In this document: positions 1,460 to 6,238 of the stretch, one piece after another
Layout: every line of letters starts with the position of its first letter
How positions within the stretch are numbered: the first letter of the stretch is position 1
From: Eubacteriales bacterium
Lineage (GTDB): Bacteria; Bacillota; Clostridia; Oscillospirales; CAG-382
Assembly (NCBI GenBank): GCA_045593165.1
Contig: JAZNWF010000046.1
Coordinates: forward strand, 23,404 to 87,403
DNA: 64,000 bases
Reading direction: 5' to 3'
Notes under the pieces: model-generated
The model's input: only the letters and a program-made list of their open reading frames with translations
Database searches by the model: none
Told to the model about the DNA's origin: nothing
Program-made: the position numbers and the translations under genes

Positions 1460-1597
1460 GCTAAAAGCACCTCCGAAAGCATTATAGCATATTTTACCCG
1501 ATAATTGTTATGAATCTATTAGAACGTCGATTTTTCTTGACTTTGATTTAAAATGCTTTATAATTGTTTTCGTGAAATAACGATTGGAGGCGGCATT

Positions 1598-2473
1598 ATG
1601 ACTTACGAAGAGATAAATAAGTGCAATACGGTTATATTCGACCGTCTTGCTCTGCTTTTGAACACGCGCCCCGATTTTGTCACGAAGGAAATGGTGTATG
1701 AGCTTGTTGATGGCTTCGGCTTGTCGGTTTTCGATGCATTTTCGCTTCTTTTTTGCGCTGCGTTGGGATTCGATACCGAAAACGAGTTTGACCGGGAGCT
1801 TTGGGAATCCTATTCGCCGCATATGCTTCATCATCTTGACGAAGCGTTTTTCACAAGCGACCCCTATTATTCCGCCGTTCGTATAAACGACGGCAAGAAA
1901 ATCGGCGAGTGGGAGCTTCGCGAGGATACTCTGCCGCCGTTTTCTGCGTTCGTGTGCGATGATCCGATAACTCTGCCCGACGGAAGAGTTATACCGCAGA
2001 TAGGCTTTTTTGATACCGAGTTTAAATTTTTAAGCGTGCTCCAGAACGGACGCGAGTGGATGACGATGATGCCGAACGAGCTTGTCACACAGCGCGCTCC
2101 TATTCTGAAGGCAAAGGGAAGAGTGGCGACCTACGGCTTGGGGCTCGGATATTTCGCGTTTATGTGTGCACGTAAGGAAGAGGTTGAAGGCGTAACGATC
2201 GTCGAGCGCGACGAAAGCGTGATAAAGCTGTTTAACGAGCTTCTTTTGCCGCGCTTTGTTAACCCCGAAAAGATAGAGATCGTGTGCGCCGATGCTTTCC
2301 TGTTTGCCGAAAAGGAAGCACCGAAGCGCAATTTCGATTATATCTTCGCGGACATCTGGCACGATCCCTCCGACGGGATCCCCGCGTATAAACGCTTCAA
2401 GGAGCTCGAGCACCTCTGCCCGAATACGAAATTCGATTATTGGATAGAAAAAACAATGAAATTGTATATGTAA
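1598..2473 (+). CDS. Class I SAM-dependent methyltransferase-fold protein (spermidine-synthase-like), function unknown
   Basis: GGAGG RBS sits 6 nt before ATG 1598; the track ORF starts earlier, at 1553. Motif I-like YGLGLGY, then VTIVERD and FDYIFADIW acidic loops typical of the Rossmann MTase fold. Confidence 0.6.
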   Translation: MTYEEINKCNTVIFDRLALLLNTRPDFVTKEMVYELVDGFGLSVFDAFSLLFCAALGFDTENEFDRELWESYSPHMLHHLDEAFFTSDPYYSAVRINDGKKIGEWELREDTLPPFSAFVCDDPITLPDGRVIPQIGFFDTEFKFLSVLQNGREWMTMMPNELVTQRAPILKAKGRVATYGLGLGYFAFMCARKEEVEGVTIVERDESVIKLFNELLLPRFVNPEKIEIVCADAFLFAEKEAPKRNFDYIFADIWHDPSDGIPAYKRFKELEHLCPNTKFDYWIEKTMKLYM

Positions 2474-2475
2474 AG

Positions 2476-2506
2476 AAAAACCGCTTGGTGATTCCCAATC
2501 GGTTTT
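2476..2506. terminator. Bidirectional intrinsic terminator between convergent genes
   Basis: aaaaaccgcttgg-tgattc-ccaatcggtttt: stem with A-run on one side and T-run on the other. Confidence 0.7.
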
Positions 2507-2508
2507 AT

Positions 2509-2530
2509 ATTATTATTATTATTATTATTA
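2509..2530. repeat. Trinucleotide microsatellite (ATT/TTA)x7, read as seven in-frame TAA codons on the minus strand
   Basis: attattattattattattatta read directly. The last unit is the stop codon of the 2528-3232 gene. Confidence 0.95.
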
Positions 2531-3232
2531 TGTAAACAACTGACTTGCCGTAGCCAAATCCTCGTGATTGTCTATTTCGAACCAACGTCCTACAAGAGGA
2601 CATGCGGCAAAATGCACGGTGGACAAAATATCGTTGAGAGCAACCTCGCTCCATAATTTGAGTTCGGACTTTTGTTCAATATATTCGGCACATTTGCCAA
2701 AGAACGCTTTTGCACCCTCAGCGGAAAATTTATATACGTCGATAGATGCACCCAACGCTTGTTCCTGCGGTATTGCCTTCGATATTTGAATTAGTCTTCC
2801 GTTATCCTCGACTACCTTCATAGATTCTTCAAGATATCTGCCAATGTCCGTTACGATTGCATTTTCCGCATTGAAATCAAGCAACGCCGTTATGACAGAA
2901 TTATCGAAAAAGACGTCGGCGTTCATCATAATAAATCCCTTGCCGTCCATCGCGTTTCTTGCCAAATATGCTGAATACATATTGTTTGTGGTTGCATAAT
3001 CAACACTGCGAATCACCTTGATATCGGGAAAATGTTCAGCGAGCCGGCTTTCAAGCACATCTGCCTTGTATCCGGATACAACGGTTATGTCAAAAATACC
3101 GTTTTTATGCAAATTATCGATCTGTTTAAACAAAATCGGCGTTCCGTTTACAGGAACCAATGATTTTGGACAATTATCGGTTATGGGTGCAAGTCTGGAG
3201 CCGAATCCGGCGGCTAATATCAAAGCCTTCAT
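2528..3232 (-). CDS. Sugar/alcohol-phosphate nucleotidyltransferase (LicC/GlmU-fold cytidylyltransferase-like)
   Basis: 234 aa. N-terminal MKALILAAGFGSRLAPIT...PKSLVPV nucleotide-binding signature. ATGA overlap with the upstream dehydrogenase gene. Confidence 0.8.
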   Translation of the reverse strand: MKALILAAGFGSRLAPITDNCPKSLVPVNGTPILFKQIDNLHKNGIFDITVVSGYKADVLESRLAEHFPDIKVIRSVDYATTNNMYSAYLARNAMDGKGFIMMNADVFFDNSVITALLDFNAENAIVTDIGRYLEESMKVVEDNGRLIQISKAIPQEQALGASIDVYKFSAEGAKAFFGKCAEYIEQKSELKLWSEVALNDILSTVHFAACPLVGRWFEIDNHEDLATASQLFT

Positions 3233-4263
3233 GTAGTTTCCTCCAATATTTCACGATAAATTTCAGGGAGAATATCGGAATCCAGATCGATTGCGTGCAA
3301 ATAAGTATATCTGCCGCTTCTCATAGAGGTTGCCATTTGCATACAGTTTACAAACGTCGCTTCATCAATACCCAAACGGGCAGGGTTAATATCAACGTCG
3401 AATTTCTTAAGATAATTCAAAACATCTGTGTGGTCGTGACCGATAAGCTTCAAAACGGCAACAGTGCCCAACGCCACCTGAATACCGTGAAGACTCGGCT
3501 TTTCGCAATAATAGTCAAGCGCGTGGCTGAATAAATGCTCCGAGCCGCTAACGGGGCGGCTGCTTCCTGCGAAATCCATAGCAATACCCGAAAGCACCAA
3601 TGAATTTGCCAAAACCTCTATAAATTCGGGACAAATCTCTTCATACTGGGTTTTCATCAATGCATCGAGCGAGGTTTGGGACATAAGATAAGCATAGCCG
3701 TTCATTTCGTCCTTGCCCTGCTGGCAAGCAAATTCCCAATCCAGAAGCGCCATATAATTAGAAATAGTATCGCCGATACCTGCCTTTATCAGCTGTGTAG
3801 GACTTTTGTAAATAAGCTCGGTGTCGAGAATAAGTATACTCGGCGTAGCACAGCCAAGACTTTTGGGCTTTCCGTCCATACGCTTCAATACCGCGATAGG
3901 CGAAGCGATACCGTCGTTTGCCATGGTGGTTGCAATAGAAACAACAGGCTTTTTGGAAATATACGATGCGTATTTACAAACGTCAAGAACCTTACCGCCT
4001 CCCAAGCCGACGATATAATCTATGTCGGTAGCGATAACTCGTTCCGCCACGGACATCGCATAGGAAATGGTGTTGTTGTCGACATATTCGCATTTTAATT
4101 TTCCAAGCCGCTCAAGCTGCGGGCGTATTTTATCACCAAAAAGCTCATCAACAACGGGATCTGTTACGTAAAGTATTTTTCCGCTGACGTTGTTTTCGGC
4201 AAGAATATCTGTTACATGGTCGATATATCCTGGACCTATTTTTAATACTTTGGATTTCAGCAT
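3229..4263 (-). CDS. sn-glycerol-1-phosphate dehydrogenase-like (EgsA/AraM family, iron-ADH fold)
   Basis: 344 aa. Motifs GLGGGKVLDV, TTMANDGIASP, GIGDTISN and SGSEHLFSHALD..LHG match the G1PDH signature as I remember it from archaeal EgsA and B. subtilis AraM. Confidence 0.72.
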   Translation of the reverse strand: MLKSKVLKIGPGYIDHVTDILAENNVSGKILYVTDPVVDELFGDKIRPQLERLGKLKCEYVDNNTISYAMSVAERVIATDIDYIVGLGGGKVLDVCKYASYISKKPVVSIATTMANDGIASPIAVLKRMDGKPKSLGCATPSILILDTELIYKSPTQLIKAGIGDTISNYMALLDWEFACQQGKDEMNGYAYLMSQTSLDALMKTQYEEICPEFIEVLANSLVLSGIAMDFAGSSRPVSGSEHLFSHALDYYCEKPSLHGIQVALGTVAVLKLIGHDHTDVLNYLKKFDVDINPARLGIDEATFVNCMQMATSMRSGRYTYLHAIDLDSDILPEIYREILEETT

Positions 4264-4314
4264 TTTATCACTTCTCCAATTAAACGGAATACTTATAAAC
4301 GCAATATTTAATAC

Positions 4315-4343
4315 ATTTTATCACAAAAACAGAATTAAATCAA
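4315..4343 (-). promoter_or_regulatory. Putative sigma-A promoter of the G1PDH/nucleotidyltransferase operon
   Basis: Minus strand reads TTGATT, a 17-nt spacer, then TGaTAAAAT (extended -10), about 50 nt upstream of ATG 4263. Confidence 0.55.
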
Positions 4344-4347
4344 CCAC

Positions 4348-4379
4348 AAAATAAAAAGAGGCATTATGCCTCTTTTTTT
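4348..4379. terminator. Intrinsic terminator of the ABC exporter gene (stop codon lies in the loop)
   Basis: aagaggca-tta-tgcctctt, flanked by A-run and T-run. Confidence 0.7.
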
Positions 4380-6109
4380 CTGTTGTAAAGTCCGGCGTAA
4401 ATACCGTTTTGCGCAAGGAGCGATTCGTGATTACCTCGCTCGGCAATGCCGTCTGCGGTCATAACGAGTATCTCGTCGGCGTTCTGAATAGTAGAAAGCC
4501 TATGCGCAACTACAATAACGGTTCTGCCCTTCGCGAGCTCCTCGAGCGATGCCTGTATCTGCATTTCGGTTACGTTGTCAAGCGCACTCGTAGCTTCGTC
4601 GAGAATAAGTATCGGGGGATTTTTAAGGAATACCCGCGCAATAGAGATTCTTTGCTTCTGTCCGCCAGAAAGGTTTATTCCGCGTTCGCCTACAGCGGTG
4701 TCATATCCCTTTTCAAGCTGCATTATATAGTCGTGAATGTTGGCACGCTTTGCCGCCTCGATTATTTCATCGTCGCTTGCGTCGAGATTGCCGTATGCGA
4801 TGTTTTCACGTATCGTGCCCGAGAAAAGAAATACATCCTGCGCAACCATACCGATGTTGCGACGGAGCGAATCGCGGGTAAGCGCGGTTATATCGTGTCC
4901 GTCTATTGTGATAACACCCTCGTCGGTTTCATAAAAACGGGGGATAAGATTGCAAAGCGTTGTTTTGCCGCCGCCCGAAGGTCCGACCAAGGCGACGGTC
5001 TTGCCGCTTTCGATGCTTAAGGAAAGATTCTTTAAAACGCCCTTGCCCGTGTCGCCTGTGGGATAGCTGAACGAAACGTTCTTGAATTCGATATCACCGT
5101 TTACGTCTGTCAGTGTAACAGCGTTTTCGGATTCCTGTTCGATAGGCGTTTCCATGATCTCGCGGAATCGTGCAAAGCCCGTCATACCGTTTTGAAGCTG
5201 CTCGAAGAGTGATATAAAGCGGTTTATCGGCTTTAAAAGCATCGCCATATAAAGAATGAACGCCGCAAATTCGCCGCTGTTGATACCGAATGCGCTTTCG
5301 GGGTTTTCGAAACCGTTGTAGAAGAATATACCACCCGCCACCAATGCCGCGAGGTAGAGAAAATCGGTGAAAAAGGTCATGACCGAGTGGAACTGACCCA
5401 TGGCCTTGTATGCCTTGCCGCGCGCAAGCTTATAACGCTCGTTTGCTTTGTCGAATTTTGCGTTTTCGTGGTTTTGGCTTGTGTAGGAGCGCGAAACGCG
5501 TATGCCCGAAACCGAGGTTTCTACATTGGCGTTTACTTCAGCAACCTCCTCGCGAGTGATGCGGAACGCTTCCTTCATACGTCTGCGCATAAGCACCGAG
5601 AAAAATACAACGAACGGGATGAGTGCGTAGATTATCAGCGTAAGCCAGATATTTATCGAGGAAAGAGCGATAAAAGATCCGATGAACATTATGATCGAAA
5701 GGAACAGATCTTCGGGACCGTGATGCGCAAGCTCGGATACGTCCATAAGGTCGTTTATAAGCCGCGACATAACCGTACCGGTCTTATTTTCGTCGAAGAA
5801 CGAAAATGGAAGCTTCTGCAGACGTCTGAACATATCGCGACGCATATCGCCCTGCATTCTTACACCGACCACGTGTCCCCAATAGGACACGAAATAGTTA
5901 AGTGCCATTTTCGCAAGATAGAGTCCGAGCACGACGCACGCCCACGTTATCACCAAACGGAGATTACGGTTGGGAACGTAGTCGTTGATTATGTTCTTCG
6001 TTATTATCGGGTAGAACAGGTCTGTCAGCGCGATAAGGAACGAGCAGAGCATATCGAACATAAACAGCTTTATGTGCGGCTTGTAGTATTTGATAAATTC
6101 CTTGATCAT
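4364..6109 (-). CDS. ABC transporter, fused permease/ATP-binding exporter (MsbA/ABCB type)
   Basis: Six-TM N-terminal domain; Walker A GPSGGGKTT, signature LSGGQKQR, Walker B ILILDEATSALD. Start chosen at MIKEF (GAGGAAA RBS); the track ORF extends to 6139. Confidence 0.92.
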   Translation of the reverse strand: MIKEFIKYYKPHIKLFMFDMLCSFLIALTDLFYPIITKNIINDYVPNRNLRLVITWACVVLGLYLAKMALNYFVSYWGHVVGVRMQGDMRRDMFRRLQKLPFSFFDENKTGTVMSRLINDLMDVSELAHHGPEDLFLSIIMFIGSFIALSSINIWLTLIIYALIPFVVFFSVLMRRRMKEAFRITREEVAEVNANVETSVSGIRVSRSYTSQNHENAKFDKANERYKLARGKAYKAMGQFHSVMTFFTDFLYLAALVAGGIFFYNGFENPESAFGINSGEFAAFILYMAMLLKPINRFISLFEQLQNGMTGFARFREIMETPIEQESENAVTLTDVNGDIEFKNVSFSYPTGDTGKGVLKNLSLSIESGKTVALVGPSGGGKTTLCNLIPRFYETDEGVITIDGHDITALTRDSLRRNIGMVAQDVFLFSGTIRENIAYGNLDASDDEIIEAAKRANIHDYIMQLEKGYDTAVGERGINLSGGQKQRISIARVFLKNPPILILDEATSALDNVTEMQIQASLEELAKGRTVIVVAHRLSTIQNADEILVMTADGIAERGNHESLLAQNGIYAGLYNRKKEA

Positions 6110-6238
6110 AGTTTTCCTCGGCATTACTTGTTTTAACATATTAATTATACACCCTGCGCGTTTTTTGTCAATAATCGTCTTGACAAAACAGAGGGGTTAT
6201 TATATCATCGAATTATAGAAACGAAAAGGAGTTTCGGT

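Follow-up and report, generated by a model that had tools for sequence, protein, structure and literature searches.

The glycerol phosphate that bacteria attach to surface polymers is taken to derive from cytidine diphosphate (CDP)-sn-3-glycerol, made by TagD, or from phosphatidylglycerol, and to our knowledge the only other donor described is the CDP-2-glycerol of pneumococci. Work by Wang and colleagues in 2010 reportedly traced the pneumococcal route from dihydroxyacetone through glycerol and glycerol-2-phosphate to CDP-2-glycerol; we take Gtp1 to be AraM-like (a reductase resembling sn-glycerol-1-phosphate dehydrogenase, G1PDH), Gtp2 to be LicC-like and Gtp3 to be NagD-like (HAD-IIA). The pneumococcal genes stand in the order wzx-wchX-gtp1-gtp2-gtp3, synthesis of NDP-2-glycerol being ascribed to gtp1-3 and transfer of glycerol phosphate to wchX (PMC5581491; PMC1391919). 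CDP-1-glycerol has been regarded as probably absent from bacteria, and the TagD family is known for sn-glycerol-3-phosphate, some members also accepting the sn-1 form (PMC8262930). Here we analyse a two-gene operon on the minus strand of a 64,000-nucleotide stretch of DNA (the window; contig JAZNWF010000046.1, positions 23,404 to 87,403) from an Eubacteriales bacterium, a gut member of the Clostridia (assembly GCA_045593165.1). The operon joins a predicted G1PDH-family dehydrogenase (gene 1) to a LicC/PntC-type nucleotidyltransferase, probably a cytidylyltransferase (gene 2), and we consider it likely that the two supply a surface glycopolymer with glycerol phosphate in activated form, as an earlier note on this DNA had proposed from its letters alone.

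Gene 1 contains GGGKVLDV, MANDGIASP and SGSEHLFSHALD, matches Pfam PF13685 (Fe-ADH_2, E 2e-30) and scores 262.9 bits against the NCBIfam model for G1PDH, by far its best-scoring family there, compared with 77.8 bits for glycerol dehydrogenase (GldA). Sequence searches of the PDB with phmmer return first 3ce9 (E 3e-54), a Clostridium acetobutylicum structural-genomics entry deposited as 'glycerol dehydrogenase', next the archaeal G1PDHs 5fb3 and 4rgq (E 1e-41) and then AraM, with GldA enzymes trailing at E 1e-9 to 6e-17. An AlphaFold 2 (AF2) model of the protein (pLDDT 96.9) is ranked alike by Foldseek, which places 3ce9 (TM 0.90) ahead of G1PDH (E 1e-22 to 1e-23, 28–31% identity), AraM and finally GldA (E 1e-17 to 1e-19, 17–20% identity). 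Four motifs (NDGIASP, GIGDxxSN, SSRPxSGSEHLFSHALD and RYT) are common to gene 1 and the G1PDHs of Methanocaldococcus jannaschii and Pyrobaculum calidifontis and are conserved across 58 members of the dehydrogenase family; the SRPxSG(S/G)EH motif aligns with the two archaeal chains and with AraM. D165, H243 and H259, which from general knowledge of the fold we take to be the metal ligands, are invariant in the 58 relatives, and at R236 arginine occurs in 49 of them and lysine in 4. Gene 1 resembles archaeal EgsA (4RGQ, 5FB3) and Bacillus subtilis AraM (9H4X) in fold, in metal-ligand positions and in the longest of these motifs, and differs in a score below the family cut-off and in having no PcrB/GGGPS partner. 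Closer in both sequence and predicted fold to solved G1PDHs than to glycerol dehydrogenases or dehydroquinate synthase, it is best read as a member of the G1PDH lineage and not of the glycerol dehydrogenases, with which it does not group; the G1PDH-type assignment first made from motifs thus survives comparison with whole families. An ether-lipid use of its product was considered and rejected: no PcrB/GGGPS scored above cut-off in the genome itself or in 20 relatives, which argues that gene 1 does not feed ether lipids.

Gene 2 contains MKALILAAGFGSRL, with LAAGFGSRL at residues 5–14 forming the N-terminal GxGxRL signature, and matches NTP_transferase (PF00483, E 1.5e-12). By sequence its PDB match is LicC (1jyk, E 3e-16), with PntC and IPCT aligned over the full length, and the Foldseek matches of its AF2 model (pLDDT 95.2) are headed by PntC (TM 0.88) and LicC (TM 0.84), below which rank sugar-1-phosphate transferases and inositol-phosphate cytidylyltransferase. 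Pfam and NCBIfam scans gave no match to PF01467 or TIGR01518, the protein thus lying outside the TagD family. Sequence and model together place gene 2 closest to the LicC/PntC type, the small phospho-alcohol/phosphonate cytidylyltransferase subgroup, in keeping with its first description as a LicC/GlmU-fold nucleotidyltransferase. PntC and LicC take as substrates small head groups that contain phosphorus, a phosphonate in one case and a phospho-alcohol in the other, and not sugar-1-phosphates; that the nucleotide is cytidine, and what the substrates of both enzymes are, we infer. LicC (phosphocholine) and PntC (2-aminoethylphosphonate) share the GxGxRL signature with gene 2 and are its best structural matches (TM 0.82–0.88), but their identity to it is only 20–24% and its partners are different, namely a dehydrogenase and a TagF-like transferase; no choline kinase, LicD or phosphonate genes lie in the immediate neighbourhood in the window.

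Relatives of both proteins at ~70–75% identity number in the thousands and come from Clostridia of the gut and rumen, from Selenomonads and from a few others; when clustered at 50%, only P0110 (72%) among the full-length representatives exceeds 50% identity to the query, and the runner-up of full length reaches 47%. A census of species-representative genomes yielded 79 loci, 65 of which were kept as having a complete dehydrogenase, at least 46% identity and enough flank. The same transferase lies directly downstream of the dehydrogenase in 48 of the 65, followed by a HAD-IIA hydrolase in 35 and forming a pair without an adjacent HAD gene in 13. In Bacillus subtilis, likewise, the HAD-IIA phosphatase gene araL adjoins the G1PDH gene araM. 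The 17 loci without a LicC-like transferase cannot be treated as one class of 'dehydrogenase alone', because neighbour clustering finds beside the dehydrogenase of six of them, and of one further contig, a gene of 129–141 amino acids that passes the TIGR01518 cut-off for glycerol-3-phosphate cytidylyltransferase (190–216 bits against 165.4). This TagD-type gene takes the place of the LicC-like transferase, leaving 11 loci in which the dehydrogenase has no adjacent cytidylyltransferase. Five loci (L025, L026, L032, L037 and L055) carry it on the same strand, 20–160 bp downstream of the dehydrogenase, with no kinase or HAD gene in between, and it is also beside the dehydrogenase in L019 and L011; two annotated cases (L032 and L055) have DNA polymerase I upstream, a housekeeping setting there. 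We did not find a pairing of an 'archaeal-type' dehydrogenase with a TagD-type cytidylyltransferase in the literature searched. Since a partner is kept even though it comes from an unrelated family, the dehydrogenase product would be a glycerol phosphate for CMP activation, and this retention of a cytidylyltransferase through a family swap is the strongest computational evidence for that product. The co-conservation expected of the gene pair thus holds, with the TagD-type loci adding to the 48.

The same loci bear on a reading with no glycerol pathway at all, in which gene 2 would be a cytidylyltransferase for phosphocholine, another phospho-alcohol or a phosphonate and gene 1 a catabolic glycerol or polyol dehydrogenase. 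Names lend it some colour, close relatives being entered at NCBI as 'phosphocholine cytidylyltransferase family protein' and 'iron-containing alcohol dehydrogenase family protein' and 3ce9 being labelled as noted above, and so do the several genomes with a solitary dehydrogenase. It fits poorly with the translational coupling of the two genes and their adjacency in most of the loci kept, with the replacement of gene 2 in sister loci by a bona fide glycerol-phosphate cytidylyltransferase family, with TagF-like (CDP-glycerol-type) transferases as the usual neighbours, with the failure to find LicD in the genome itself and with the much greater nearness of gene 1 to G1PDH than to GldA. We judge it improbable.

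A glycopolymer as destination is suggested by where the relatives lie. On long contigs they stand inside Wzy-type loci, in the order Wzx flippase, PF04464 (TagF-like) glycerophosphotransferase, dehydrogenase, transferase and HAD-IIA; this order is seen in Lacrimispora, Christensenellales and Enterococcus loci, and Candidatus Enterococcus ferrettii has Wzy ... Wzx, GNAT, TagF-like, dehydrogenase, transferase, HAD. A custom hidden Markov model (HMM) detects a TagF-like gene within 5 kb in 20 of the 35 three-gene loci and 7 of the 13 pair loci, and none near the TagD-type or solitary dehydrogenase loci. Loci lacking such a gene have LicD-family genes among their neighbours, besides glycosyltransferases, flippases and acyltransferases. 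Counted by genome, TagF-like genes occur in 9 of 12 that have a cytidylyltransferase partner and in 1 of 8 that do not. Placed beside TagF-like or LicD transferases in polysaccharide loci, the cassettes give good support to the envelope glycopolymer named in the earlier note. Selenomonas ruminantium ATCC 12561 has two separate three-gene cassettes (L075 and L076), with a TagF-like gene near each.

The gene order of these relatives is identical to that of pneumococcal Gtp1-3/WchX inside Wzy-type loci, and the likeness extends to purpose, a CDP-activated glycerol phosphate handed to a glycerophosphotransferase. Four relatives (L001, L003, L004 and L085) have the three adjacent genes and a glycerophosphotransferase in a Wzy locus, whereas the window has only the first two genes, outside a polysaccharide locus and with the consuming transferase on another contig. 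Going by gene order and protein families rather than direct alignment, what we see here seems to be gtp1-gtp2 of the pneumococcal cassette. Gtp1-3 had been brought in earlier as a mere analogy; the comparison was relevant but understated, and the pair, being apparently part of that very cassette, is less new than analogy alone implied. We would class the system with the gtp-type CDP-glycerol cassettes, as a variant both reduced and relocated. Within Lactobacillales the dehydrogenase occurs in 1 of 401 sampled genomes, that of the Enterococcus, and no streptococcal names appeared among the relatives of either protein in searches that included an Enterococcus-homologue seed.

The route also follows the logic of TagD/TarD with TagB/TagF, in which glycerol phosphate and CTP give CDP-glycerol for a PF04464 transferase, and the TagD family occupies the place of gene 2 in sister loci. 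It departs from that route in two ways: gene 2 has an RmlA/GlmU-like nucleotidyltransferase fold and not the TagD fold (CTP_transf_like, HxGH), and the glycerol phosphate would come from a dedicated G1PDH-family enzyme and not from GpsA or GlpK.

No HAD gene or glycerophosphotransferase adjoins the pair in the window, which agrees with the earlier remark that no transferase is adjacent. The transferase that seemed to be missing is nevertheless present: a search of the genome for TagF- and LicD-like genes finds a single PF04464 (TagF-like) gene, on contig C74 and inside a Wzy-type polysaccharide locus, and no LicD in what is assembled. Its operon partners encode a GT1 glycosyltransferase, Wzy, a TupA-like ATP-grasp protein, a hexapeptide acetyltransferase, an epimerase, UDP-glucose dehydrogenase and a 503-aa protein without a Pfam match. 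The C74 locus also encodes a 1537-aa protein with an NAGPA phosphodiester-glycosidase domain and a weak choline-binding-repeat match, which could trim phosphodiester-linked groups on the same polymer. Other sources of donor were looked for in the assembled genome. No TagD was found, the three CTP_transf_like (PF01467) hits reading as NadD, CoaD and RibF by their N-terminal motifs rather than by family scan; nor was TarI, the one IspD match passing the IspD model and adjoining IspF, as expected of the isoprenoid enzyme. The remaining nucleotidyltransferase hits were set aside as looking like a sugar-1-phosphate type with an extra domain and an RmlA-like protein. Since the assembled genome shows no other source of CDP-glycerol or CDP-ribitol, only the window pair could plausibly provide the TagF-like enzyme with its donor.

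From these parts a specific route can be proposed in which the operon would act as a self-contained CDP-glycerol supply module. Using NAD(P)H and a bound metal, gene 1 would reduce dihydroxyacetone phosphate (DHAP) to sn-glycerol-1-phosphate, gene 2 would join this product with CTP to give CDP-glycerol carrying an sn-1 ('archaeal-handed') glycerol phosphate, and the TagF-like enzyme of C74, the only one in the genome, would place the glycerol phosphate from this donor onto a polysaccharide. The G1PDH motifs of gene 1, the TagD-type alternative partner and the frequency of cassettes without an adjacent HAD gene argue for an sn-1 product, and we infer both this configuration and the link to the C74 locus. 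As a whole we give this route a little less than an even chance.

The competing explanation is a pneumococcal-type route, in which the only HAD-IIA gene of the genome, a 259-aa protein on contig C39, would serve in trans as Gtp3, the donor would be CDP-2-glycerol and the polysaccharide would bear glycerol-2-phosphate as in types 15 and 23. The top NCBIfam models of the C39 protein overlap those of the cassette HAD, with TIGR01457 first for both. Several observations lean towards the pneumococcal-type route or count against the sn-1 route. Pair genomes, including this one, have a dispersed HAD-IIA gene, whose product might serve in trans, and the HAD gene is retained in the 35 three-gene loci. 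The two kinds of copy have a complementary spread: 9 of 10 three-gene genomes have the cassette HAD-IIA copy only, and a dispersed copy of 36–49% identity occurs in this genome, in all five pair genomes tested and in 4 of 5 dehydrogenase-only genomes. Telling pairs from three-gene cassettes by sequence was tried and abandoned, because beyond one V/I change no alignment column discriminates their transferases and their TagF-like partners are interleaved on a tree, where the pair/three-gene label needs 5 changes, a figure equalled in 51–61 of 500 shuffles; this points to one and the same donor for both types of cassette. The homologous pneumococcal pathway reportedly makes CDP-2-glycerol, according to Wang et al. 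in 2010, and in the same work Gtp1 is said to have reduced dihydroxyacetone, not DHAP, in vitro. Gene 1, at 262.9 bits, is under the curated G1PDH cut-off of 413 (NF002022), and because the assembly (1.71 Mb in 75 contigs) is 73.6% complete, the absences recorded above are weak evidence. Finally, among the 11 solitary loci are 8 genomes, the isolate [Eubacterium] cellulosolvens LD2006 one of them, in none of which a cytidylyltransferase of either type was found; 7 of the 8 also have no TagF-like gene, and PcrB was absent from both of the two tested. A dehydrogenase in genomes without a cytidylyltransferase must also have another role.

Other features make CDP-2-glycerol synthesis in trans harder to accept. 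The C39 protein is only 40% identical to the cassette HADs, which are 55–67% identical to each other, and its gene sits among housekeeping genes for replication and tRNA modification. The complementary distribution of HAD-IIA copies is confounded by taxonomy. The locus order shared by Lacrimispora, Christensenellales and Enterococcus with wzx-wchX-gtp1-gtp2-gtp3 (PMC5581491, PMC1391919) speaks for the route, but orthology to the pneumococcal genes is read from that order and from family only. TagD-type partners are known for sn-3 substrates and in some cases sn-1 (PMC8262930), and none is known for the 2-phosphate. Taken together, we regard the trans-acting hydrolase as rather unlikely. Returning to the sn-1 route, a wider version of it would have gut Clostridia making the mirror-image CDP-sn-1-glycerol, with the G1PDH-family enzyme as the constant element and the cytidylyltransferase interchangeable, LicC-like or TagD-like; pairs would add the sn-1 form to surface polysaccharides, and in three-gene cassettes it would be turned into the 2-phosphate. 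We advance this generalization tentatively.

In a tree of 76 dehydrogenases (a quick tree with SH-aLRT support only), the window protein belongs to a fully supported clade of six, and the other five members have no LicC-like transferase. Flanks are syntenic across the clade, in the order GFO oxidoreductase, ABC exporter, dehydrogenase, a variable slot, spermidine-synthase-like gene, response regulator and kinase, and their identities (77–88%) are comparable to the 82–86% of the dehydrogenase. The slot is empty in L010, L020 and L084, holds TagD in L019 and holds the LicC-like transferase in the window and in the metagenome contig L098. On one side the ABC exporter adjoins the dehydrogenase in L019, L020, L084 and L098 (85–88% identity); on the other, spermidine-synthase-like orthologues of 77–82% identity flank the slot in L010, L019, L020 and L084. 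Synteny with L019, L020 and L084 indicates that the dehydrogenase was inherited together with its flanks within this sub-lineage. Vertical inheritance across the whole order was rejected, as 0 of 200 sampled members, including four same-genus genomes, have the dehydrogenase. Four genomes of the same genus and six of the same family lack the pair as such, and of 299 other class-level genomes sampled a single one has the LicC-like transferase. One same-genus genome has the spermidine-synthase-like and GFO genes adjacent and another has a polysaccharide deacetylase after the ABC gene. Such patchy presence marks the pair as an accessory trait, typical of genes that vary surface polysaccharides. 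The ABC exporter is also present without the dehydrogenase in same-genus genomes; export of a glycerol-phosphate-bearing lipid or glycan is a possible, candidate role for it.

Both reading frames are intact and overlap by an ATGA in which gene 1 stops and gene 2 starts, with a GGAGG 8 nt upstream, both read directly from the sequence. The promoter was called by a consensus scan (9 of 12 matches plus TG) and is a consensus match only. An intrinsic terminator stands between the ABC exporter gene and the operon, and a second, which the earlier note did not record, follows gene 2; its fold (−12.9 kcal/mol, z = −3.7) was equalled in stability by 0 of 200 shuffles. Terminators on either side of the pair make it a unit bounded at both ends. 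Every structural element that had been claimed for the operon (two overlapping minus-strand genes, a promoter-like site of their own, insulation by the exporter terminator and the quoted motifs of both proteins) is present; coordinates are given in Table 1. Seven TAA repeats (window 2507-2530) start at the gene 2 stop codon, directly before the closing hairpin.

Table 1. Positions of the operon, its signals, its neighbours and the related genes discussed in the text (window positions unless a locus or contig is named)
Feature	Positions	Strand	Description
Gene 1	3229..4263	-	Putative glycerol-1-phosphate-dehydrogenase-family protein (Fe-ADH_2), 344 aa; GGAG ribosome-binding site upstream
Gene 2	2528..3232	-	LicC/PntC-type nucleotidyl (probably cytidylyl) transferase, 234 aa
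ATGA overlap of gene 1 stop and gene 2 start	3229..3232	-	Translational coupling
Promoter-like site	4315..4343	-	TTGATT, 17-nt spacer, TAAAAT; TG before the -10 hexamer (extended -10), TTGATT-17-TGaTAAAAT
Intrinsic terminator of upstream ABC exporter gene	4353..4377	-	Hairpin of 11 pairs, then T-rich tail ATTTTGTGGT
Terminator closing the operon after gene 2	about 2470..2506	-	Hairpin, then U-tract UUUUUCUUU
Fused ABC exporter (membrane and ATPase domains)	4364..6139	-	Pfam ABC_membrane and ABC_tran; upstream neighbour
Spermidine-synthase-like gene, convergent	1553..2473	+	Weak Spermine_synth / aminopropyltransferase matches; far edge of variable slot
G1PDH-family and TagD-type pairs	L025:10001-11438; L026; L032:10199-11518; L037; L055:10001-11469; L019:10001-11468		
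Solitary-dehydrogenase genomes (8)	L020, L084, L067, L068, L073, L077, L080, L088		Dehydrogenase 46–83% identical
1537-aa NAGPA-domain protein, C74 locus	L008:12586-17199	-	
HAD-IIA gene of the genome	C39:105638-106396	-	
Example of a cassette HAD	L001:9752-10591		

One might ask whether the pair is a stranded remnant of a cassette from a polysaccharide locus, bereft of its hydrolase and transferase and serving no polymer any more. Its position would suit this, outside any glycan locus in the window, with the ABC exporter on one side and regulatory genes on the other, as would its absence from close relatives and the rarity of the transferase among the class-level genomes sampled. Decay is hard to reconcile with intact frames that have their own promoter, ribosome-binding sites and terminator, or with a ratio of non-synonymous to synonymous divergence (dN/dS) of about 0.05–0.06 for the dehydrogenase against its two nearest relatives, a value obtained at a dS of about 2, near saturation. 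The ABC, dehydrogenase and transferase layout recurs at 77–85% identity in a second metagenome contig, and the genome has a TagF-like consumer without another source of donor. For the transferase dN is 0.17, and dS is saturated, hence no ratio is given; judged from their sequences, both genes are under purifying selection. A remnant without function is accordingly a very doubtful account of the pair, and we retain the supply of an activated glycerol phosphate as its probable role.

Across gut Clostridia and Selenomonads, then, G1PDH-family dehydrogenases are coupled time and again with a cytidylyltransferase, which comes from one or the other of two unrelated families, and the loci with the LicC-like transferase often have a TagF-like or LicD transferase next to them. 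The three-gene type occurs in the cultured Selenomonas ruminantium ATCC 12561 and S. infelix ATCC 43532 and the TagD type in Acutalibacter caecimuris, and such carriers make the question of the product directly testable. If it is the sn-1 form, these bacteria would use an 'archaeal' glycerol phosphate for glycan decoration, in contradiction to the view of CDP-1-glycerol as probably absent from bacteria (PMC8262930). Bacterial G1PDH homologues would then gain a function unrelated to ether lipids, and many of those included in 'lipid divide' surveys would be unconnected with lipids.

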